This document shows positions 1-25,448 of a DNA stretch of 29,676 nucleotides, one piece after another. Numbering within the stretch: position 1 is the first letter of the stretch; every line of letters begins with the position of its first letter. The notes beneath the pieces are model-generated. The model had not been told where the DNA came from and did not search any database. It saw only the letters and a program-made list of their open reading frames with translations. This DNA comes from a virus (taxonomy: Duplodnaviria; Heunggongvirae; Uroviricota; Caudoviricetes): the IMG/VR virus record IMGVR_UViG_2660238507_000002, positions 1 through 29,676 of that record; one strand, written 5' to 3'. The translations under genes were made by a program, and so were the position numbers.

Positions 1-258
1 ATGCAAACCGTTATTTTTGGTCGTTCGGGTTGCCCTTACTGTGTGCGTGCAAAAGATCTGGCTGAGAAATTGAGCAATGAACGCGATGATTTTCAGTATC
101 AGTATGTAGATATTCGTGCGGAAGGGATCACTAAAGAAGATCTACAACAAAAGGCAGGTAAACCCGTAGAAACCGTGCCGCAGATTTTTGTCGATCAGCA
201 ACATATCGGCGGCTATACCGATTTTGCTGCATGGGTGAAAGAAAATCTGGACGCCTGA
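1..258 (+). CDS. grxA: glutaredoxin 1
   Basis: 85-aa ORF with CPYC dithiol active site (GCPYCVRAK); translation recognised as enterobacterial GrxA; stop TGA at 256-258. Confidence 0.93.
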   Translation: MQTVIFGRSGCPYCVRAKDLAEKLSNERDDFQYQYVDIRAEGITKEDLQQKAGKPVETVPQIFVDQQHIGGYTDFAAWVKENLDA

Positions 259-268
259 TCGTCTGACA

Positions 269-300
269 AGCCCTCGCGTTGAGGGCTTTACTGATTTTTT
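269..300. terminator. hairpin (AGCCCTC..GAGGGCT) followed by T-run, between convergent grxA and ybjM
   Basis: 7-bp GC-rich inverted repeat at 269-287 followed by ttactgatttttt. Confidence 0.5.
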
Positions 301-13230: not shown

Positions 13231-13881
13231 TCAGCGGCTGTCATTGCGCAGTCTGCGCTCCAGCTGCTGTTTGTCTTTTTTCACGCCACAGCGGGGATCG
13301 AGCTGTAACGCATGGTTGAGATGATTAAGGGCGGACGCCGGATTGCTTTCACTCAGGACAACGCCAATCGCTTTATGCAGACGCGCCCGTGACTGGTCCG
13401 GCATATCCAGACCGTCTGTCAGCTCCAGCGTCTGCAGCAACAGATCAGCATCAAAGCCGGTGGCGGCAAGCATTGCGCTCTGCGCGGCGTCTGCCATTTC
13501 CTCTGCCAGCACGGTCTGCACGTTGCGGTTACCCAGCGGCATCACCCAGCCATGACGCAGGGCATGACGCCCGATCTCCAGCGCTCCGGCATAATCTCCG
13601 GCATCAATGCGCCACAGCATCACGTACATCAGCACGTCATCCTGTTGAGCGCCTCCGGCAGCCAGGACACCCTCTGCCCAGGCGGCGTACTTCGGCAGCA
13701 GCTCCACCTTGATTTCCGCTTTTTTGACCGTGGACTGAACGCCCTTGAGACGGCGGCGGTCTTCCGCCAGTTGCAGCAGCATCAGGTCATAGCCCGATGC
13801 GTGGCGAACACTGCCGCCCTCGCGGGCGGCCTGTTCAGCCTGAACGCGCAGGCGATGCTGCCGTGCGGGACTCAGGCTCAT
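13231..13881 (-). CDS. M: terminase endonuclease (small) subunit M
   Basis: 216-aa ORF, sequence resembles P2 gpM (..RHASGYDLMLLQLAEDRRRLKG..VLMYVMLWRIDAGDYAGALEIGRHAL..). Confidence 0.8.
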   Translation of the reverse strand: MSLSPARQHRLRVQAEQAAREGGSVRHASGYDLMLLQLAEDRRRLKGVQSTVKKAEIKVELLPKYAAWAEGVLAAGGAQQDDVLMYVMLWRIDAGDYAGALEIGRHALRHGWVMPLGNRNVQTVLAEEMADAAQSAMLAATGFDADLLLQTLELTDGLDMPDQSRARLHKAIGVVLSESNPASALNHLNHALQLDPRCGVKKDKQQLERRLRNDSR

Positions 13882-13884
13882 GGA

Positions 13885-14244
13885 TTACGCTCCTGTTTCG
13901 GCTGCGGCGGCGCTGAAATCACCAATCTGGATGTTTTCCACCAGTGCGGCGCAGCGGTAGTCCTCAACCACATAGGCTTCGTTAACGGATTCAAAGTTTT
14001 CAATCCGGTCACGTTTCGGGTTGTCGATAACTGAACGGCGGCGGGTGTCTTCCTGCCAGTAGATGGACAGGTTATCCAGACGGGTGATCAGCAGCGCATT
14101 CGGCGGGAAGATCTGGTCTTCCAGCGTCTGCTGCACAGACGGCTCCACGGTGAACTTGCTGGACAGTTCTTCAACTGCCACACCGTTCAGACGCGCCAGC
14201 TGCTGCAGGTAAGCGTTAAAAGCAAAGCGGGTATTCTTCTTCAT
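13885..14244 (-). pseudogene. N: major capsid protein N with large in-frame internal deletion
   Basis: Only 119 codons between O and M where a ~357-aa gene is expected; retains gpN-like N-terminus (TRFAFNAYL..KFTVEPSVQQTL) joined to gpN-like C-terminus (LITRLDNLSIYW..NPKRDRIENFESVNEAYVVEDY..GDFS). Confidence 0.75.
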
Positions 14245-15236: not shown

Positions 15237-17003
15237 ATGAACACCACACTGACACCCGCAGATCTCGATCCCCGTCGGCAGGCCATGCTGCTGTACTTTC
15301 AGGGATACCGCGTCGCCCGCATTGCTGAAATGCTGGGCGAGAAAGTTGCAACCGTTCACAGCTGGAAAAAACGCGACAAGTGGGGTGACTATGGGCCGCT
15401 GGATCAGATGCAGCTCACCACCGCCGCACGCTACTGCCAGCTCATTATGAAGGAGCACAAAGAAGGGAAAGATTTCAAAGAGATTGACCTGCTGGCGCGC
15501 CAGTCGGAACGCCACGCGCGGATCGGCAAGTTTAACAATGGCGGCAACGAAGCCGACTTAAACCCTAACGTCGCCAACCGTAACAAAGGCCCGCGCCGTC
15601 AGCCGGAAAAGAATGTTTTCACCGATGAACAGATTGAGAAGCTGGAAGAAATCTTTCATTCCTCCATGTTCAACTACCAGCGCCACTGGTGGGAAGCCGG
15701 AAAAACCAACCGCATCCGCAACCTGCTGAAGTCACGCCAGATCGGCGCGACCTTCTATTTTGCCCGTGAAGCCCTGATTGACGCCCTGCTGACCGGACGT
15801 AACCAGATTTTCCTTTCCGCCAGTAAGGCACAGGCCCACGTCTTTAAGCAGTACATCATCGACTTCGCCAAAGAAGTGGATGTGGAACTGAAAGGCGATC
15901 CGATGGTGCTTCCTAACGGGGCCACGCTTTACTTCCTCGGCACCAATGCCCGCACGGCCCAGAGTTATCACGGCAACCTGTATCTGGATGAATATTTCTG
16001 GATACCGAAATTTCAGGAGCTACGCAAAGTGGCTTCCGGTATGGCTATTCACAAGAAATGGCGGCAGACCTATTTTTCCACACCATCCAGCCTGACCCAC
16101 AGTGCTTATCCGTTCTGGTCCGGTGCGCTGTTCAACCGCGGACGCAACAAAGCCGACAAGGTGGACATCGACCTGTCCCACAACAATCTGGCCCCCGGCC
16201 TGCTGTGCGCTGACGGGCAATACCGCCAGATAGTCACCGTCGAAGATGCGGTGCGCGGCGGCTGTAACCTGTTCGACCTTGACCAGTTGCGCATGGAATA
16301 CAGCCCGGACGAATACCAGAACCTGCTGATGTGCGAGTTTGTGGACGATCTCGCGTCCGTGTTCCCGCTCAGCGAACTACAGGCGTGCATGGTGGACAGC
16401 TGGGAAGTCTGGACCGACTTTCATGCACTGGCGCTGCGCCCGTTTGGCTGGCGCGAAGTGTGGATCGGTTATGACCCGGCAAAAGGTACGCAGAACGGCG
16501 ACAGCGCCGGATGCGTAGTGGTGGCACCGCCAGCCGTGCCGGGCGGTAAGTTCCGCATTCTTGAGCGTCACCAGTGGCGCGGGATGGACTTCCGCGCCCA
16601 GGCTGACGCCATCAAAAAACTGACTGAACAGTACAACGTGACATACATCGGTATCGACTCAACCGGCGTCGGTCACGGGGTTTACGAGAACGTGAAAGCG
16701 TTTTTTCCTGCCGTCCGGGAGTTTGTCTACAACCCCAACGTTAAAAATGCCCTGGTACTCAAGGCCTACGACATTATCAGTCACCGCCGTCTGGAGTTTG
16801 ACGCCGGACACACCGACATAGCGCAGTCATTTATGGCAATCCGTCGCGCCACCACCGCCAGCGGCAACCGCCCGACCTATGAAGCCAGCCGCAGCGAAGA
16901 AGCCAGCCATGCCGATCTGGCGTGGGCAACAATGCACGCACTGTTTAACGAACCGCTGCAGGGCGAGTCCGCCAATACCAGCAATATTGTGGAGATTTTT
17001 TGA
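15237..17003 (+). CDS. P: terminase ATPase (large) subunit P
   Basis: 588-aa ORF; translation resembles P2 gpP. Confidence 0.85.
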   Translation: MNTTLTPADLDPRRQAMLLYFQGYRVARIAEMLGEKVATVHSWKKRDKWGDYGPLDQMQLTTAARYCQLIMKEHKEGKDFKEIDLLARQSERHARIGKFNNGGNEADLNPNVANRNKGPRRQPEKNVFTDEQIEKLEEIFHSSMFNYQRHWWEAGKTNRIRNLLKSRQIGATFYFAREALIDALLTGRNQIFLSASKAQAHVFKQYIIDFAKEVDVELKGDPMVLPNGATLYFLGTNARTAQSYHGNLYLDEYFWIPKFQELRKVASGMAIHKKWRQTYFSTPSSLTHSAYPFWSGALFNRGRNKADKVDIDLSHNNLAPGLLCADGQYRQIVTVEDAVRGGCNLFDLDQLRMEYSPDEYQNLLMCEFVDDLASVFPLSELQACMVDSWEVWTDFHALALRPFGWREVWIGYDPAKGTQNGDSAGCVVVAPPAVPGGKFRILERHQWRGMDFRAQADAIKKLTEQYNVTYIGIDSTGVGHGVYENVKAFFPAVREFVYNPNVKNALVLKAYDIISHRRLEFDAGHTDIAQSFMAIRRATTASGNRPTYEASRSEEASHADLAWATMHALFNEPLQGESANTSNIVEIF

Positions 17004-18028
17004 TGGGAAAGAGTAAGAAGAACCGCGCTGTGTCGACGAACCAGATTCAGCATAAAAGCCAGACTTCAGCCGAAGCATTCAGCTTTGGCGATCCCGTTCC
17101 TGTTCTGGACCGCCGCGAACTGCTGGACTATGTGGAATGCGTACAGACAGATCGCTGGTATGAGCCGCCAGTGAGTTTTGACGGACTGGCGCGAACCTTC
17201 CGCGCTGCCGTGCATCACAGTTCACCAATTGCGGTGAAATGCAACATTCTGACCAGTACCTACATCCCTCACCCGCTTCTCAGCCAGCAGGCTTTTTCAC
17301 GTTTTGTGCAGGACTATCTGGTATTTGGTAACGCATACCTGGAGAAACGCACGAACCGGTTCGGTGAAGTTATCGCCCTTGAGCCTGCTCTGGCAAAATA
17401 CACCCGACGTGGGTTAGACCTGGATACCTACTGGTTTGTGCAATACGGCATGACAACCCAGCCGTATCAGTTCACGAAAGGCAGCATCTTTCATCTGATG
17501 GAACCCGATATCAACCAGGAGATCTACGGCCTGCCCGGTTATCTTTCTGCCATTCCGTCAGCCCTGCTCAACGAGTCCGCCACGCTGTTCCGACGCAAAT
17601 ATTATATTAATGGCAGCCATGCAGGATTCATAATGTACATGACCGATGCCGCTCAGAACCAGGAGGATGTGAACAACCTCCGCAACGCGATGAAAAGCGC
17701 CAAAGGGCCAGGCAACTTCCGCAACCTGTTTATGTACTCGCCTAACGGCAAAAAAGACGGGCTTCAGATCATCCCATTGTCAGAAGTCGCGGCGAAAGAT
17801 GAGTTTTTGAATATCAAAAATGTTAGTCGCGATGACATGATGGCGGCACACCGCGTGCCGCCGCAGATGATGGGGATTATGCCTAATAATGTTGGGGGAT
17901 TTGGGGATGTGGAGAAGGCAAGCAAAGTGTTTGTGCGGAATGAGTTAATGCCATTGCAAAAGAATTTTGAATCACTGAATAACTGGGCTGGAAAAGAAAT
18001 TATTTCATTTAATGACTACTGTTTTTAA
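17000..18028 (+). CDS. Q: portal (capsid vertex) protein Q
   Basis: 342-aa ORF overlapping P stop, as P2 gpQ. Confidence 0.85.
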   Translation: MMGKSKKNRAVSTNQIQHKSQTSAEAFSFGDPVPVLDRRELLDYVECVQTDRWYEPPVSFDGLARTFRAAVHHSSPIAVKCNILTSTYIPHPLLSQQAFSRFVQDYLVFGNAYLEKRTNRFGEVIALEPALAKYTRRGLDLDTYWFVQYGMTTQPYQFTKGSIFHLMEPDINQEIYGLPGYLSAIPSALLNESATLFRRKYYINGSHAGFIMYMTDAAQNQEDVNNLRNAMKSAKGPGNFRNLFMYSPNGKKDGLQIIPLSEVAAKDEFLNIKNVSRDDMMAAHRVPPQMMGIMPNNVGGFGDVEKASKVFVRNELMPLQKNFESLNNWAGKEIISFNDYCF

Positions 18029-18033
18029 GAAAA

Positions 18034-18057
18034 TGCGCATGGAAATTTTCATGCGCA
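18034..18057. terminator. palindromic hairpin between convergent Q and reverse transcriptase genes
   Basis: TGCGCATGGAAA / TTTTCATGCGCA near-perfect palindrome; on the minus strand it is followed by ATTTTCTT. Confidence 0.5.
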
Positions 18058-18063
18058 CACACG

Positions 18064-18993
18064 TTATTCTGATACTACAGGTTGATATCTCTGGATTTCA
18101 TCAATCAGCTCTGATGAATATTTCGCACAAAGCCTATTAATAAATAATGGCTCAACACTTTTGCAATACGATAAATATCCTTGAAGAAATAGCCTTTTCT
18201 TCTCATCAAGAGCCTCCCATTTAAAAATAAGCGATTTAACCATCCTTTTTTTATCTCTCCCTAAGGATACTCCACCATCTGTTGTCAAAGTCACACCCGT
18301 AACCATCATTTTATTTTTCTTTGACATATGCAGTGTCTTTTTTCTATTAATCCATAGTTTTGATGGGTATTTCAAATTTTTTAAATTCGAGCGTAAAAAA
18401 GGTGGTATTTGCTTCAATACATTTTCTTCGTTTGTTGAGAAGTACATATCATCAGCATAGCGTGTATATGTTATACCTTTTGAAAGACAAAATTCATTCA
18501 ATATATGATCTAATTCATAGCATATAGCATTGCTTACCACAGGGGAACTAACAGCACCCATAGTCAGTCTCCCGTTAAAGCATACTATTTTTACCAGCAA
18601 ATCAGTATCATCCTTTGACCAATCATCACTGAAGAAATGCTTGTTGTCGTTTATAAATCTCTCAACATCACTTTTCTTAATTGAATCAAAAAAACCTTCA
18701 AAGTCCATCTTAAGCATAAAACGTTTAGCTTTGTGAATGCTTGCATGTTTGAACACTGATGAACCCTGCTGATATGCTACAGCATTTGGATGAATCGGCA
18801 ATTTCGACAGAACATTATCATGAAGTAATCTCTGCAAAACTTTTAATTCTTTAGAGGGCTGATAGACGATTCTTGTCCCACCGCCTTTTTTAGGTACAGA
18901 AAATTTACCATAATGCGAGTTAGCATCATTTGCAACTTTTAATATAAAATCAGCTTCTAACAGTAAAACTTTAGCTAGATACTCAATTAACAT
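18064..18993 (-). CDS. retron-type reverse transcriptase
   Basis: 309-aa ORF with RT motifs: N-terminal FSVPKKGGGTRIVYQP, motif A KMDFEGFFDSI, motif B GAVSSPVVSNAICY, motif C YTRYADDMYF, and retron-typical VTGV downstream; AT-rich; ATG 1 nt after upstream gene stop. Confidence 0.85.
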   Translation of the reverse strand: MLIEYLAKVLLLEADFILKVANDANSHYGKFSVPKKGGGTRIVYQPSKELKVLQRLLHDNVLSKLPIHPNAVAYQQGSSVFKHASIHKAKRFMLKMDFEGFFDSIKKSDVERFINDNKHFFSDDWSKDDTDLLVKIVCFNGRLTMGAVSSPVVSNAICYELDHILNEFCLSKGITYTRYADDMYFSTNEENVLKQIPPFLRSNLKNLKYPSKLWINRKKTLHMSKKNKMMVTGVTLTTDGGVSLGRDKKRMVKSLIFKWEALDEKKRLFLQGYLSYCKSVEPLFINRLCAKYSSELIDEIQRYQPVVSE

Positions 18994-18994
18994 A

Positions 18995-20047
18995 TCACAT
19001 GATCCTTTCTAATTCTGCTTTGAATTTAGATATCATTATTAAATCGGATAATGATCTAGCTCTACTTCGTTGAATACTTTCAACTAAATCTTTCATCTTT
19101 TCATGATTAAAAAATTTAATATAATCGACACATGAATAATGGGTCACGCCCTCAAATCGACTTTCCTTAAAAATCCCAAGGGCAACTCCAATAGAAACAA
19201 CAAATGAAATATTTTTATTAATTTTATAATTTATCAACCTACCTGTGATATTAATAATCTCAGGAATTGTTATTGGACCTAAAGAAGATATAACAACGAG
19301 CACAAAAAATAAAAAAATTTTTGGTGAATATTTGTAATCACCTATTGAATTTGTATTAGTTATGTTTGATTGAACTTTCCTATTTAGCCTTTCATTTATT
19401 TTAGGCATACACGTTAAAATTGTCTCAAATTCAGTATAGATTGTAGGGCCAAATTTGGATTCACTATCAACCCATTTTACGGGCCCTGTATTGATAAATG
19501 ACTTATGACTTTCAAACTTTTTATCTAATATAGGAAGAAGTTTTTTACGTAAAACAGGACTTAATGAAAATGCGCCCAATTCAGCTACAGTGCCATAACT
19601 CTCTACGAGAATAATTACCACATCAGAAAAATCCGCAAGCCATTCTTCAAGTGATAGCGCATTCACATTACTATGAGTTCCTAAATTGCTAATTACTTCC
19701 CATGCTAATTCTGCTCGAAAAGTAACAAATTCTTTATGATGCTTAGCAATATATTTTTCCAGCATCCCTCTATTTGAACAATAAGTCTCATCTCCTCCAC
19801 AAATAAATAATACTTTTGGCAGGATATAATTAAAAGAATTCAAGTTACTTGGAAAAAAACTTGAAATAAAATTTTCTTTTGCTCGTAAATATCTAGGATG
19901 TTTAAACCACATAACAATTAATGCCCATACAAGAGTTCCCGAGACACAAGTTAGCCTGGTGTCTATAAATGACACAAGGCTAACTTGTGTCGAGATACCA
20001 AGCAATCCATACGAGTTGGCTAAACACCAACCACTAGAAAGTAACAT
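18995..20047 (-). CDS. retron effector candidate: NDT/SLOG-like domain followed by two predicted transmembrane helices
   Basis: ORF translationally coupled to RT; contains ..VVIILVESYGTVAELGAF.. (resembles nucleoside deoxyribosyltransferase-like Glu motif) and hydrophobic stretches KIFLFFVLVVISSLGPITIPEII and ISFVVSIGVALGIF. Start uncertain: first 46 codons overlap a strong hairpin and look non-protein-like, so true start may be ATG at 19912. Confidence 0.6.
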   Translation of the reverse strand: MLLSSGWCLANSYGLLGISTQVSLVSFIDTRLTCVSGTLVWALIVMWFKHPRYLRAKENFISSFFPSNLNSFNYILPKVLFICGGDETYCSNRGMLEKYIAKHHKEFVTFRAELAWEVISNLGTHSNVNALSLEEWLADFSDVVIILVESYGTVAELGAFSLSPVLRKKLLPILDKKFESHKSFINTGPVKWVDSESKFGPTIYTEFETILTCMPKINERLNRKVQSNITNTNSIGDYKYSPKIFLFFVLVVISSLGPITIPEIINITGRLINYKINKNISFVVSIGVALGIFKESRFEGVTHYSCVDYIKFFNHEKMKDLVESIQRSRARSLSDLIMISKFKAELERIM

Positions 20048-20110
20048 ATTGAATGTACTTTCCTGCTAAGGGCACAGCTAGGCTAGCACTAACATACGGA
20101 TTATTCAAGT
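19915..20110 (-). ncRNA. candidate retron msr-msd non-coding RNA (extent approximate)
   Basis: Position immediately upstream of effector-RT operon; contains very stable hairpin at 19941-19993 as expected for an msd stem; a1/a2 repeats and branching G not identified. Confidence 0.3.
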
Positions 20111-20129
20111 GAATGCAGCTCAGCGCGCG

Positions 20130-20148
20130 CTCGTATCCCCGCCACGCC
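20130..20148. other. candidate cos site (cohesive-end sequence)
   Basis: Minus-strand GGCGTGGCGGGGATACGAG resembles the P2 19-nt cohesive end GGCGAGGCGGGGAAAGCAC as I recall it (about 14/19 identical); GC-rich island between two AT-rich inserts. Confidence 0.3.
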
Positions 20149-20193
20149 TGCCCGCTTTATGTAGTAGTTTTCATGCAGGTGCATGATCTACGC

Positions 20194-20217
20194 AAAAGCC
20201 CGCCAGTTCTGGCGGGC
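20194..20217 (-). terminator. rho-independent terminator ending the upstream two-gene cassette
   Basis: GCCCGCC-agaact-GGCGGGC hairpin followed by TTTT on the minus strand. Confidence 0.7.
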
Positions 20218-20265
20218 CTTAGCAAAAACGATCCTCAAACGATCATGCGATCTCATGCAGCATAG

Positions 20266-21108
20266 TCATGCACGATCATTTGACTCAGCATCTGCTGCAC
20301 GCTTGCTGCGCGAAGATGCACTTTTACTACCAATCTTTCGACAGTTCTTTCTATCCCTGGCTTCATTTTCTTTAAATTTGTTATATGTCTCAGTATCAAA
20401 AAACGAAATTGTTTCAACCTCATCTTTTGGTATGAGCACACGGAAATCTTCGATATTAAGCCGAGACATTCCACTTATCACACCACTATCAAGATAATGT
20501 TGGTGATAGTTAGTCGTGATACTAATCGTTAGATCATCTTTATCCCGATATCCGCTTAACATCGGGAGAAGTTCAAGGTGTTCTGAAAGCCCGTTTTCTA
20601 ACGCCGGACAAGTAACAAGACCAACATAGATTTTGCGAGACGACAGAGTTGCTATGATCGGAAACTGTCTTGCGGACGCTTCCATGAGTAATGATTCGAA
20701 AGCGTTATTACCCACAGCTTTAGCTAAGGCATCCCAGCGACGATCTCCACGTGATGTGCGTAACTTATTTCCAAAACCTGAAATCGCAGCGAGAACAATT
20801 GAAATCATAACCCATGCTATCTGTTTGATTTCATTTATTCTTTGAAGTTTGTCTTTCGATGAAGACAACATGCCATTAAAACTGTCAGGTGTTAGATTCA
20901 AGGCATTAGCCAGCCAACGAAACCCTCCGCTGACGTTCAAAATAAAGGTGAAAAAACCGCCAAGGAGAAAAAAAACGATACCCCAGGCAGCCACAAAAAA
21001 ATAAGCGTCCCAGCCGTTGGAACGCTTATATCGGTATCTTGTTGAAAGTGATAGGTTTACATAAATAAAACCACTAACCAAAATCACTGCTAAAAGTAAT
21101 GTTGCCAT
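20266..21108 (-). CDS. hypothetical membrane protein (3 predicted N-terminal TM helices plus ~160-aa soluble C-terminal domain)
   Basis: 280-aa ORF, AT-rich, start overlaps upstream gene stop (TAATG); no recognisable family. Confidence 0.65.
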   Translation of the reverse strand: MATLLLAVILVSGFIYVNLSLSTRYRYKRSNGWDAYFFVAAWGIVFFLLGGFFTFILNVSGGFRWLANALNLTPDSFNGMLSSSKDKLQRINEIKQIAWVMISIVLAAISGFGNKLRTSRGDRRWDALAKAVGNNAFESLLMEASARQFPIIATLSSRKIYVGLVTCPALENGLSEHLELLPMLSGYRDKDDLTISITTNYHQHYLDSGVISGMSRLNIEDFRVLIPKDEVETISFFDTETYNKFKENEARDRKNCRKIGSKSASSRSKRAADAESNDRA

Positions 21109-21323
21109 TATCTGGTTCTATTAGTTTTCTCTTTTACAGTGCTCGTTTTGATGCCTTCAAGCTTATCCATCTGTGCCTTGATGGCATCCATTGCTCTTTT
21201 GTTAGACAAGTCTACGGACACAAAACCATCTTTACTAAGATTGAGTTTGTCCTGGTTCTCTTTAAGAACCCTTGCCAGACGTTCAACTGGGTTACCCAGG
21301 CTAAATGCGGCGATGCTTGACAT
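21108..21323 (-). CDS. hypothetical small soluble protein, first gene of two-gene cassette
   Basis: 71-aa ORF with strong RBS AAGGGGGAG 5 nt upstream of ATG; translationally coupled to the 280-aa gene. Confidence 0.6.
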   Translation of the reverse strand: MSSIAAFSLGNPVERLARVLKENQDKLNLSKDGFVSVDLSNKRAMDAIKAQMDKLEGIKTSTVKEKTNRTR

Positions 21324-21593
21324 AACTCCCCCTTTTCACATGGCGCGGAAGTCTACACTCCGACGCCTACAACCTCAACAGATTATCTTTAAAATTTAGA
21401 CAACAATATCATCTGTTGATTTCGTTACTTAAACTTAAGTTCAATGCGCTCGATCATGCAAGCGGTTTCTTAAGAACTGTTAATTTCCTGGCATATATAG
21501 TGGTTAAGATAACAAATTGACACTAACGCCTCGCATAGCTCGTTGTTCAACCTTGCTGACGCCAGAAGCAAGTTCAGACGCCAGCAACGTTTC

Positions 21594-21827
21594 TTAATGC
21601 AGCCAGCTGTCGTCTTCCCACACCTTCTGCATAATTTTCATCACTTGCTTCCTTTCTTCGTCCAGTTGCAGTCCGGTCAGTTCCACACCGTTAGAGCTAC
21701 CTTTACGGATACGAATTACCGTTTTGGGATATAGGGGGCGCAGATTGCGGTAAAGCTCGGATTCAAGGGCGTCCAGGGTAGACTGGCTAATCTTCTGCTC
21801 TTTATCGATCATTATTTCAATGCGCAT
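21594..21827 (-). CDS. DinI-like / Tum-like protein
   Basis: Translation from MRIEIMIDKEQ... resembles DinI (MRIEVTIAK..); own RBS GAGGGGA upstream of ATG at 21827; ORF-track start at 21899 judged an upstream artefact. Confidence 0.7.
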   Translation of the reverse strand: MRIEIMIDKEQKISQSTLDALESELYRNLRPLYPKTVIRIRKGSSNGVELTGLQLDEERKQVMKIMQKVWEDDSWLH

Positions 21828-21837
21828 AAAAGTCCCC

Positions 21838-22026
21838 TCAGCTGATGACATCCATTGAGCGGTTGTATTCGTGGCTTCTGATTTTTGCCATGAGTTCATC
21901 TGTCAGTTCAGAAACCCACTGCAGGGCCAACCCCTTCTCTTCATCACTACACTCACTAGCCGCTACAAGCTTAAGAAAAAAATCAATGCGTTGGAGCTTC
22001 AAAGACTCCCAAAAATAGTCCTGCAT
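21838..22026 (-). CDS. hypothetical small protein, first gene of LexA-box operon
   Basis: 62-aa ORF from ATG at 22026 preceded by AGGAGG; upstream part of ORF-track frame overlaps the LexA box and is probably non-coding. Confidence 0.5.
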   Translation of the reverse strand: MQDYFWESLKLQRIDFFLKLVAASECSDEEKGLALQWVSELTDELMAKIRSHEYNRSMDVIS

Positions 22027-22179: not shown

Positions 22180-24594
22180 TTAATACAGGTTCCGCCACTT
22201 ATCATCTTCCTGCAAACGCTGGTTCCGATAGAAGATACGCAGGCCTGCTCCTGACGGAATGCTGCCGCCGCGAAGGAGTAAATCGACCTCTTTCTCGCTG
22301 CCATCAAATCCTCTGGACTTCAGTTCATAGACGAGCTGCTGTCGTTGATGGTCTGTAATTCGCTGTTTGTAGTCTCTACGCCGTTTCGGTTTCACCAGGC
22401 GTAACCTTGCAGCCAGTTCCCGGCGCTCTTTTTTGTTCATACTGTGCAGGTAATCGTGCAACTCCTTGTCATCCATACGGGTGATATCCGTTCTGGTATC
22501 CCCATCAGCTGATTTGTCTTTCCCTTGTTGGTACAAATTTTCAGCAAGGGGACAGTTATTGCCACGAGTCCAAGGGGCGCAAGCGCCCTGGTCGGCTGCC
22601 GCCTCCTGAACGTCAACGGCTTTACGGACCATTTTCCACTTCACTGCATGAGTGCAGATCTTGCCCTCTGCAATGGGTGACCAGATGCCATAAATACGAA
22701 TACCGTGATCGCCATAGGCGGTCGGCTCTTCGTTGATTTCATAAGCGGTTCTGATGAGGTGATATTTACGGGGAACCAGTACGCCGCCCTGCTTCATGAT
22801 GTAGGTGGCAAAGCAACCAGCATCAGCTGCAGCCAGAATGGCATCAAGGCGCGGGTTATCCAGTACCGGCGCACCTGCTTTTTTGTCACCCTGTTGCCTT
22901 GCCGCCTGACCAGCCAGCAATCGCAGTTCACGGTAAGCCTGACGCCCCGGAATGCCAAAGAAGCGGAATTGCTGAACACGATGCAGAGACGCCCAGGCAT
23001 TAACGTATTCAGCGTTATCACGCAGAGATTTACCCGTTTCCTTGCTGATCTCGCCAGCCAGACCACGCCCGTCAATGTTCTTACTGATGTATTTCGCGAT
23101 GTAGCTTGTTGGTGTACCTTTGCGCGGGTTTATCAGCTCAGACTTAAAGCGTGGTCCTGTGTTATTACCCAGCTCCTCGCGGTCTTCACGAATGGCAAAC
23201 TTACGCAACAAAGCAGTAATGGCGCGGCGATCTTTTTTGCGCATAAAACACAACAGGTGCCAGTGAACTGTACCGTCATGATGCGGCTCAGCCACCCGCA
23301 CGCCATACCAGCGCAATCCGGCTTTGTACATCGCCTTACGAAATGCAGCAAACATGCCGACCAGATAATCACTGCTTTGTCTTACCGTCGCATTTGTCCA
23401 GTTCGGGTTGGGCCTGCCGTTATTTAGCGTGGAATGGAAACGTGACGGACAGGTGATGGTGTAGAAAACGGCGCAGTCACCGCGCATTTCCGCGATAAGC
23501 TCCAGACCTTTAACACATGCCATCATCTCATTGCGGCGATGCGCCGGGTTGCTACTACTGGCGTTTACCACGTCCTCCATATCCAGCGTGTCGCCGTCTT
23601 CGTTCACCAGTTCATGAGAACGGAAAAACTCCAGCGACTTACGGCGCTGCTCACGTTTATGCATCACGGCTTCATAGCTGACATAGGGAGATGCTTTTTT
23701 GCTGACCAGGCAAACAGCACGCAACTGCTCTTCCCGCCATTCGAAACGCATCTTCCATAATTTCCGATACCACCAGTCGGCGCACAACATACGCGCCAGC
23801 GAACCCGGAATGAGTTCATAGGGTACGGGTTTACGGCGGTTTCTTTTCCGGCGGAGTTGCTCAAACGCAGGAGGGATGACATCCAGACGCAGGGTTTCCG
23901 CCGCCACCCTTTCCCATGTCTTGCGGATTTCTTCTGGCTTAACGTCATCGGTGGCATACAAATCACCACAAGCTGCATCAAGGCACATGCTCATATGCGC
24001 GGCAACAAGGGTAGACAGGCGCTTCACCTGATCCTGACTCATTTCAGGCAAGATCAGCAGGCCGTCCAGCCCTTCATGGCTTGCCATAAAACGAAAAGAT
24101 GCAGATAGCTGGCTGTCGCGTACATGCTCTAGTCGTTCCAGACATGGTTTAATCGTCTCACGCAAATAGCGGGAATAAGCCTTTGGCCTGCCCAGGCTGC
24201 TGAAGTATTCAATACGTTGCATCAGCGGCTTGCTGATATGGGAAGGCTGGGCGTTAACGTCCGCCAGTATGACCATGTCCGGATTAAAACGCTGCTGCTC
24301 ATGCACCAGCTTTGCCCGGCTAATGAGCTTATCCTGCTCCATTTCGCGCTGGACAGGATCACGGGATTCATTAAAGAAATAACGCTCCCAGACCTGATCA
24401 CTCAGTGCCTCGCGGCGCAGTTGTTCCTGCTTGTTATCGGCAGCGTACAGAGTGATCAGGTTTGAAAGCGCAGAAACCGGCGCAACTTCCGCCGGGTCCA
24501 GATAAGGGTTAATCGCCTTTTTCGGGCTGTTCCATGAGAATGCTGCGGCGGCCTCGTTAAAGCCGCTGCAGTTGTTCATATCAGCATGTCTCAT
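22180..24594 (-). CDS. A: replication initiation protein A (rolling-circle endonuclease)
   Basis: 804-aa ORF at the position of P2/186 gene A; start overlaps dam stop. Confidence 0.8.
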
Positions 24595-25448
24595 GCACGT
24601 ACTCCGTACACGGCAGAACTATCCACGCCACGCGAAGGATCAAATCCCACCCAGCAGCGCGCCCCAGAAACAGCGATGATTTCTGTTGCAGATTTACTCT
24701 CACCAGCTGCTACGCCGATGCTGCGTTTTGCCTTGATGTAGTGGTGAGTAAAATTGCGATACAGCGAACGGATCAGGGATGTGTCACTGTTAGAAACAAT
24801 GACCGGATGTCCTTCTGATGACCGATGTTCAAGAACGGATGCCAGGTGATACTGGTCATCTTCAGTGAAACCATCAGTGTGATAGCTGGAAAACGTACCG
24901 TCATACGGCGGATCGCAATACACCACATCCCCCGCCTTCAACATCGCCAGCGTTTCATCAAAGCTGGCGCAGATAAACGTTGCTCGTTGGGCTTTCTCTG
25001 CAAATGCGCGAATTTCTTTTTCAGGGAAATACGGATTTTTATAATTACCGTAGGGAATGTTGAAATGCCCGCTCTTGTTATAGCGACATAACCCACGGTA
25101 ACCGTGACGATTGAGATACAGGAAATATACCGCTTTCATGAAATCAGTAATTTCAGTTGAGTAATTAAACTCCTGCCTTATGTTGTAATAAGCCACCTCC
25201 CTGTTTGCTTCCTTAAATAAAACTCTGGCGCGAGATATAAACGATTCACAATCAGCGGCAACCTTTTTATAGAGGTTGATTAAATCAGGATTAATATCCG
25301 CAACCAGATAGCTGGGATAATCCGTCTCCATCATCACAGCACAGGAACCCGCGAAAGGTTCAACCAGTCGCGGGCCAGCTGGAAGATGTTTTTTCAGTTC
25401 GGACATTACGGCGGTTTTATTTCCCGCCCATTTCAGGATGGTGCTCAT
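24591..25448 (-). CDS. dam: DNA adenine methyltransferase (Dam-like, GATC)
   Basis: Motif [11 protein letters not shown] and motif IV DPPY; start taken at ATG 25448 ([11 protein letters not shown]), overlapping TraR-like stop. Confidence 0.85.

Follow-up and report, generated by a model that had tools for sequence, protein, structure and literature searches.

What role, if any, do five GATC sites play within 93 bp of a prophage genome, next to a retron cassette and close to what looks like the site at which that genome is cut for packaging? The question is raised by IMG/VR record IMGVR_UViG_2660238507_000002, positions 1 to 29,676 (the window, that is, the whole 29,676-nt stretch that was analysed), a P2-family prophage whose orientation is reversed relative to the P2 map. 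A first-pass annotation had drawn attention to the GATC cluster, to repeated inverted motifs around it, to a putative cos site and to a gene for a Dam-like methylase, and had thought of methylation-sensitive regulation or packaging. Packaging is known to be under epigenetic control in a single headful phage, P1; in the P2 family, packaging from cos has been regarded as a matter of sequence alone. Here, we show that four of the five GATCs lie in the arm of a P2-family cos site, where two of them are widely conserved. The cluster may be a methylation-readable accessory array in the part of cos that terminase presumably recognizes, with the dependence on methylation as the conjectural part; we give this reading a probability of roughly 0.45. 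We would class the locus as a cos site that belongs to a known family and bears an array of Dam sites that is conserved and so far undescribed.

Results

The GATC sites start at 20185, 20230, 20241, 20249 and 20274 and span 93 bp (20185-20277), which makes them the densest cluster of the window, as had been claimed. Across the whole window there are 101 GATCs (one every 294 bp), close to a shuffle expectation of 96, and its tightest 3-, 4- and 5-site groups all lie here. The next-best 5-site span measures 206 bp; this second densest cluster (55-260) is found at the left edge of the window, within an ORF (open reading frame) running off it. If the 101 sites are scattered uniformly over the window, five of them come this close together somewhere in it with P = 0.022, and on window data alone the cluster is modestly significant. 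The contexts of the five sites are ATGATCTA, ACGATCCT, ACGATCATG, GCGATCTC and ACGATCAT, none of which is TGATCA/G. The inverted motifs reported around them are real: GCATGATC (20181-20188) is the exact reverse complement of GATCATGC (20241-20248), the two making up an 8-nt inverted repeat, there are three copies of TCATGCA (20171, 20253 and 20266) and one of TGCATGA (20180), and AAACGATC is a direct repeat with copies 11 bp apart. Five of the window's 24 copies of TCATGC/GCATGA fall within 103 bp, in which about 0.08 would be expected.

The surroundings of the cluster are a conserved block with sharp borders. Border mapping on 80 IMG/VR loci, fetched by their portal protein, places the beginning of conservation at about 20122 and its end at 20273. 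The resulting 151-bp cos module (20123-20273) is that of a Felsduovirus-like (Fels-2/RE-2010-like) P2-family prophage and keeps its borders across 71 distinct relatives. In searches of phages and of E. coli, only 20118-20274 proved common to many phages and prophages; the retron and a cassette encoding a 280-aa protein, which flank it, occur independently of it. Flank typing of 70 loci (the window and 69 of the portal-fetched loci) gave 46 left types and 32 right types in 61 combinations, and just 2 clusters of the 151-bp block itself at 80% identity. The module stands between portal gene Q (17000-18028, plus strand; RefSeq annotation) and the gene of the replication endonuclease gpA (22180-24594, minus strand; ORF list and RefSeq annotation), with variable cassettes on both sides, and the same hotspot architecture is known for P2-like phages (PMC9122126).

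Within the module, a predicted 19-nt cohesive-end segment (cosN, 20130-20148; reverse complement GGCGTGGCGGGGATACGAG) can be aligned to the cohesive ends annotated in P2 (GGCGAGGCGGGGAAAGCAC) and 186 (GGCGTGGCGGGGAAAGCAT); the reverse complement matches the annotated cos of 186 at 15 of 19 bases, including the first 13. A four-way alignment of the window, P2, 186 and P4 identifies 20123-20177 as the equivalent of the published 55-bp P2-family cos core, which goes back to Ziermann and Calendar 1990 and is cited in PMC5694545 and PMC3931495. Conservation is asymmetric, with 8 bp on the retron side vs about 125 bp on the gene-A side. Ziermann and Calendar are also said, in 1990, to have delimited a minimal cos of 125 bp. 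Judged by these alignments, the module is the P2-family cos packaging site, at which cleavage by terminase is predicted. The packaging-site location that had been offered as putative is thereby upheld for four of the five GATCs, which lie inside the module at 37-101 bp from the cohesive-end segment. The cluster is thus composite: four GATCs belong to the cos arm and the fifth to the adjacent variable cassette, all on the same side of cosN.

The arm itself is built around short ATGCR repeats, of which the ATCATGC motif of the first-pass annotation is a local form. The first two are the inverted pair TCATGCA/TGCATGA (20171-20186; inverted repeat I5), kept in P2, 186 and P4 as AATGCAnnTGCA. Three distal repeats, TCATGCG, TCATGCAG and TCATGCAC, follow at 20243-20273 (direct-repeat family D1), and their ATGC-N9-ATGC arrangement is kept in the 186, P4-like, window-lineage and genome sets. 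We profiled ATGCR/YGCAT in five sets (the window lineage, P2-type, 186-type, diverse genomes and P4-like satellites) and found the same pattern in all: about 2 copies in the first 40 nt after cosN, 3.1-4.9 in nt 40-140, and background levels of about 0.5 per 100 nt past 140 nt. Because the array is kept in every set, including satellites that share only cos with their helpers (Rousset et al., PMC9122126, find cos to be the sole region common to the two), it is the family-wide element, most likely the place where the gpM/gpP terminase would dock, and the best candidate for that role.

Between the two groups of repeats lies a dyad (20198-20217, inverted repeat I1), a hairpin of sequence GCCCGCCAgttcTGGCGGGC with centre CGCCAGnnCTGGCG; the centre is kept in the window-lineage, 186 and genome sets. 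P4-like elements have a different 12-bp stem at this position and carry the T-run on the opposite side of the hairpin, and in the satellites the hairpin and GCATGCAAAGCCATGCACCTTATCGATGCATGG are almost invariant. The hairpin (20192-20223) had been taken for the terminator of the neighbouring cassette, an assignment that we reject: the dyad shares the conservation of the cos module, and a sequence scan of 19800-20600 called no terminator and no sigma-70-like promoter. Conservation of the arm reaches further in the P4-like satellites (L326-L399), in which the arm beside psu stays above 85% conservation over 200 nt or more past the core, than in helpers, with about 125 nt in the window lineage and about 35 nt in the P2 type (ungapped register).

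The four cos-arm GATCs have different histories. Two of them, GATC #2 (20230) and GATC #3 (20241), form the pair GATCCT-N5-GATCATGC (20230-20244), with starts 11 bp apart. The pair was found in 108 of 132 distinct cos segments, collected from IMG/VR and from 80 species-representative genomes, and its hosts include Escherichia, Enterobacter, Citrobacter, Klebsiella, Pantoea, Erwinia and Tatumella. When sequences were aligned on an anchor independent of GATC, site 2 was kept in 68 of 83 distinct sequences (82%) and site 3 in 70 (84%). Identity to the consensus is 0.82-0.84 for the two 4-mers, 0.41-0.48 for the 5-nt spacer and 0.3-0.55 for the upstream flank; the spacer alternates between a CTCAAAC type and a CTTTTTG type, and the upstream flank is variable too. 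In a metaprofile of 124 non-redundant contexts, GATCs per 25 nt reach 1.74 at 75-100 nt from cosN and 0.35 at 25-50 nt, against about 0.06 elsewhere within ±400 nt. The comparisons show two of the four cos-arm GATCs to be under purifying selection. Co-variation of the pair with the small terminase was considered and rejected as a clean pattern, given that loci L300 and L324 also have the pair and their gpM is only 52% identical to that of the window.

The other sites are more local. GATC #1 (20185-20188), which abuts TGCAT, is missing from about half of the window-lineage sequences, and its offset of 36 nt after cosN recurs in Rahnella-type, Rouxiella and some 186-type arms. GATC #4 (20249-20252, GATCTCATGCA) lies between ATGC repeats and varies among relatives; the Rahnella type has the similar GATCTCAATGCA. 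Both are gains of an E. coli sub-lineage. GATC #5 (20274-20277) makes up the first bases of the right-hand variable cassette, outside cos, conservation having stopped at 20273; its flank is shared by L048 only among the IMG/VR loci, and the same cassette occurs in other E. coli genomes.

GATC arrays recur in the cos arm of several P2-family lineages of Dam+ hosts. Prophages of Rahnella, Pectobacterium and Brenneria carry GATCCAC-N3-GATCCAC ahead of the dyad and a third GATC ahead of the ATGCA repeats. In Aeromonas phage phiO18P (Bielevirus; L411), the genome's tightest 3-GATC cluster (93-124) lies 77-105 nt from the annotated cosL, directly after CCGCGCCAG. Its relatives were retrieved by a DNA pattern of the cos core, and in their prophage form cos lies far from int; 7 of 8 keep at least two of the GATCs. 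In 6 of these 7 they stand as GATC-N14-GATC, the spacer being variable, whereas the seventh, L601, has five GATCs spaced in other ways; the eighth relative has a single GATC. Because the flanks differ between lineages (ACGATC, TGATCC and RGGATC), GATC itself is the common denominator of the arrays. The picture is less clear in HP1, whose ends hold two GATCs, 52 bp apart in A+T-rich DNA, and in K139. In the latter (L410), the densest 130-bp GATC window (180-281) lies 180-280 bp from a presumed, unannotated cos, and TGACGATCAG and ATGATCATGTG are repeated there. Betaproteobacterial relatives have 0-1 GATC in the arm though their background is higher; to our knowledge, their hosts lack Dam.

The arrays are missing from the best-known members of the family. 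The arms of P2, 186, P4 and PSP3 have 0-1 GATC and no array, and 38 of 39 distinct arms of P4-like satellites have no GATC; that the GATCs might be a universal packaging signal was rejected on the latter count. Genome-wide, the observed-to-expected ratio of GATC is 0.74 in the window, 0.77 in its lineage and 0.78 in the lineage's dam-less members, and 0.80 in phiO18P, compared with 0.22 in P2-type loci, 0.23 in 186-type loci, 0.22 in PSP3 and 0.41 in P4-like elements. In terms of density, loci of the P2/186 lineages (L086-L245) have about 0.85 GATCs per kb vs 3.4 per kb in the Fels-2-like lineage (L005-L084 and the window). The avoidance agrees with the counter-selection of GATC in enterobacteriophages described by McClelland 1984 and by Deschavanne and Radman 1991, as cited in PMC5014478. 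The model phages have no GATC array because their lineages avoid GATC throughout the genome.

The prophage's own methylase gene (24591-25448, minus strand), which had been called Dam-like, encodes a true member of the Dam family of DNA adenine methyltransferases (PF02086, 1e-76; TIGR00571 'dam', 323.8 bits at a cut-off of 114.85). The link that had been suggested between this gene and the cluster is weakened: the gene is present, but of the relatives whose gpA region is complete and followed by over 3 kb of sequence, 10 have no dam and keep the pair, and 4 relatives with dam do not have the pair. Phage dam as an obligate partner of the array was accordingly rejected as a strict rule, ten dam-less prophages of the window's lineage having kept the pair.

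Genomic context

The left neighbour of cos is a retron cassette of the St85 family (18064-20110, minus strand; NCBIfam retron_St85_RT and STM3845_fam; PADLOC RT_II-A and NDT_II-A). It comprises a reverse transcriptase (18064-18993, minus strand; NCBIfam), an effector ORF of 350 aa (18995-20047, minus strand; NCBIfam STM3845_fam) and an msd hairpin at about 19936-20000, seen in the structure of the region. The effector ORF is probably annotated too long: the STM3845_fam match starts at residue 76, and the first 40 or so codons overlap the msd hairpin. Retrons that take the place of DNA between cos and a terminator of a 186-like prophage were reported by Dodd and Egan 1996. Bobonis et al. found that Dam triggers retron Sen2/St85 by methylating a required GATC in the msDNA hairpin. 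No GATC occurs here in 19057-20184, 1128 bp that take in the msr/msd region with the msd hairpin and the retron's upstream half; at the mean density of the window, a stretch of this length would contain about 3.8. The msd is therefore not a Dam substrate. A GATC-free msr/msd region fits avoidance of self-triggering by Dam, to which low G+C may contribute. An Rfam search of 19700-20400 returned chance-level matches only.

On the right, the 280-aa cassette ORF (20266-21108, minus strand; ORF list), a RefSeq 'hypothetical protein', has its stop codon inside the last cos repeat and no match in Pfam, NCBIfam or PADLOC. Together with a 71-aa ORF it makes up a two-gene cassette (20266-21323, minus strand) in the P2 defence hotspot, likewise with no Pfam, NCBIfam or PADLOC match, that recurs in numerous E. 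coli prophages and could be an as yet uncharacterised hotspot system. Beyond it lies a DinI-like gene (21594-21899, minus strand; Pfam and RefSeq annotation).

Sequence searches find members of Felsduovirus, such as Salmonella phage RE-2010, to be the nearest named phages, and 17900-21400 is 100% identical to E. coli MS14386. The window's portal protein is 60-61% identical to those of P2 and 186. The small terminase subunit is gpM-like (13231-13881, minus strand; Pfam PF05944, 2.2e-40), about 50% identical to gpM of P2 and 186, and is the presumed reader of the cos arm, to which it would bind. The large subunit is gpP-like (15237-17003, plus strand; RefSeq 'terminase ATPase subunit family protein' in a 100%-identical record). 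What is left of the capsid gene is a 119-aa remnant (13885-14244, minus strand) to which the profile of the P2-family major capsid protein matches in parts only; at about 14110, 697 bp are deleted compared with close relatives (L037, L011 and others). The capsid gene of MS14386 is intact (1059 bp) despite its 100% identity to the window over 17900-21400. Because of the capsid deletion, this copy of the prophage is probably defective and its cos site currently unused.

Discussion

We propose the following arrangement. The cos site would run from the 8-bp left edge through the 19-nt cohesive end (20130-20148) into an arm that extends to one side only, for about 125 bp in the direction of gene A, and is made up of the ATGCR array, the CGCCAG/CTGGCG dyad and GATCs interleaved with the repeats. 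The gpM/gpP terminase would dock at the ATGCR array, and the pair at 20230 and 20241, one helical turn apart, would form together with 20185 and 20249 an accessory array of GATC-tolerant lineages. In Dam+ hosts the sites would be fully methylated at rest, given that the hosts of the array lineages all have Dam, and hemimethylated just after replication. This state could be read at cos by terminase itself or by SeqA competing with terminase, and cleavage and packaging would thereby follow the genome's state of methylation or replication, much as at P1 pac. A methylation-related role is plausible in view of conserved GATCs, variable spacers and independent arrays in the same arm, and the absence of the array from P2, 186 and P4 would make it an accessory or regulatory layer, not part of core recognition. 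A broader version, in which a Dam checkpoint on cos cleavage is an old trait of P2-family phages in Dam+ hosts, with GATCs 75-105 bp from the end and loss in the GATC-avoiding P2, 186 and P4, strikes us as rather doubtful.

Several observations count against the methylation-readable array. P2, 186, PSP3 and P4-like elements package without one, and it is thus inessential to a P2-type terminase. Four close relatives (L254, L255, L272 and L280) are entirely without the pair, and phage dam and the array show no co-variation. The lineages that bear arrays are few, and hence so are the independent events. Finally, site 2 conserves GATCCT beyond GATC alone, as would an ordinary word for protein recognition.

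That last point leads to the main rival, a possible though somewhat unlikely explanation in which GATCCT and GATCATGC are plain recognition repeats for the lineage's terminase or a host factor, and the Dam sites they contain are incidental. Conservation does span both words beyond GATC, the words are interleaved with the universal ATGCR repeats, the pair is kept without a phage dam, and P2, 186 and P4 have CGCATGC or TTAATGC where the window has GATCATGC. Such words would nevertheless not be expected to bring GATC back in the arms of three lineages with unrelated flanks and partly different offsets, nor to disappear as an array from arms in non-Dam hosts. A protein that touches GATC in a Dam+ host, moreover, necessarily meets N6-methyladenine.

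A second alternative, which we consider improbable, is that the sites serve a host GATC-binding protein apart from terminase, such as SeqA, mismatch repair or another Dam-linked process, for example the organisation of new phage circles or of the prophage locus. Work by Brendler and Austin is reported to show cooperative binding of SeqA to a pair of hemimethylated GATCs that share a helical face and lie no more than about 31 bp from each other. The spacings of 11 and 8 bp are within that range and make SeqA a candidate binder, and the array is confined to Dam+ hosts. The distance to cos is nonetheless fixed in unrelated layouts (beside the portal gene here, beside int/attP in phiO18P), and this fixed distance to the cut ties the array to cos, not to replication or to neighbouring genes.

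Chance, as an accident of composition that hitch-hiked in a conserved block, has even less in its favour. It would agree with a window-wide P of only 0.022, with one cassette-borne site and with two recent sub-lineage gains; it does not account for a GATC density raised 20- to 30-fold at 75-100 nt from cosN in 124 contexts, for pair sites kept as their spacer varies, or for the arrays that arms of the phiO18P and Rahnella types carry independently. Control of the retron or of the 280-aa cassette by a Dam-sensitive switch, or a link from phage Dam to the retron toxin as the first-pass annotation had considered, is suggested by the St85 family of the retron, by the Dam trigger of Sen2/St85 and by a cluster that adjoins both cassettes, but is largely refuted and very improbable, with the same module beside 46 left- and 32 right-flank types, no promoter-like site in 19800-20600, an msd region free of GATC and, in place of a Dam-regulated promoter switch of the pap, agn43, opvAB or gtr type, no promoter and a block independent of its neighbours.

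The cos sites of P2, 186 and P4, like that of the window, lie between the portal gene and gene A and have a homologous 19-nt G+C-rich end, the 55-bp core and a one-sided ATGCR arm, with the dyad as well except in P2 itself. Unlike the window, P2, 186, PSP3 and P4-like elements have 0-1 GATC in the arm, and their genome-wide ratios are 0.22-0.41 vs 0.77 in the window's lineage. The cos of phiO18P has its elements in the same order, with cosN, TGCnnGCTT, the T-run/TGCA palindrome and CGCCAG, and with GATCs arrayed at 77-105 nt from the end, but it lies beside attP/int and has RGGATC flanks, spacings of 18 and 10 nt and no triple ATGCR repeat. The pac site of P1 has seven GATC-containing hexamers in 161 bp and is cleaved in a methylation-dependent manner, as a secondary source reports, citing Sternberg and Coulby. 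Dam sites are dense in this packaging site, as in that of the window, and P1 likewise has a Dam gene of its own; unlike the window's site it serves headful packaging and has TGATCA/G hexamers on both sides of the cut. The window has a cos-type site, no TGATCA/G and GATCs on one side of the cut, and here dependence on methylation is only surmised.

The cosB site of lambda (R3-I1-R2-R1) is a one-sided arm of short repeats by the nicking site, thought to dock the small terminase, and we know of no role for Dam in it. Its layout is analogous to that of the window's arm, with no sequence relationship, and an IHF consensus was not evident in the window's arm on inspection. The Dam trigger of retron Sen2/St85 involves the same retron family as the cassette adjacent to cos, and a phage-type Dam is present here too; the trigger needs a GATC in the msDNA hairpin, however, and the window's msd has none, its GATC cluster lying outside the retron cassette. 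Within the searchable library, a literature search found no link of GATC or Dam to a P2-family cos site, and a Salmonella paper on undermethylated GATCs and a paper on ST64B contained nothing relevant to a cos GATC array.

For the P2 family, the cos module stays in place between two hotspots of defence genes and, as a fixed anchor, is useful for delimiting the cassettes on either side. If Dam sites are conserved as an array whose distance from the cos cut is fixed, the principle of P1 would extend to cos phages. If a checkpoint of this kind exists, terminase, or a SeqA that opposes it, would distinguish finished, methylated genomes from freshly replicated ones. P4-like satellites are without the array, which could then affect which satellites a helper packages. 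The role of the widespread phage-borne dam genes is poorly understood (PMC7556043), and the array, if the reading is true, would supply a function for them.

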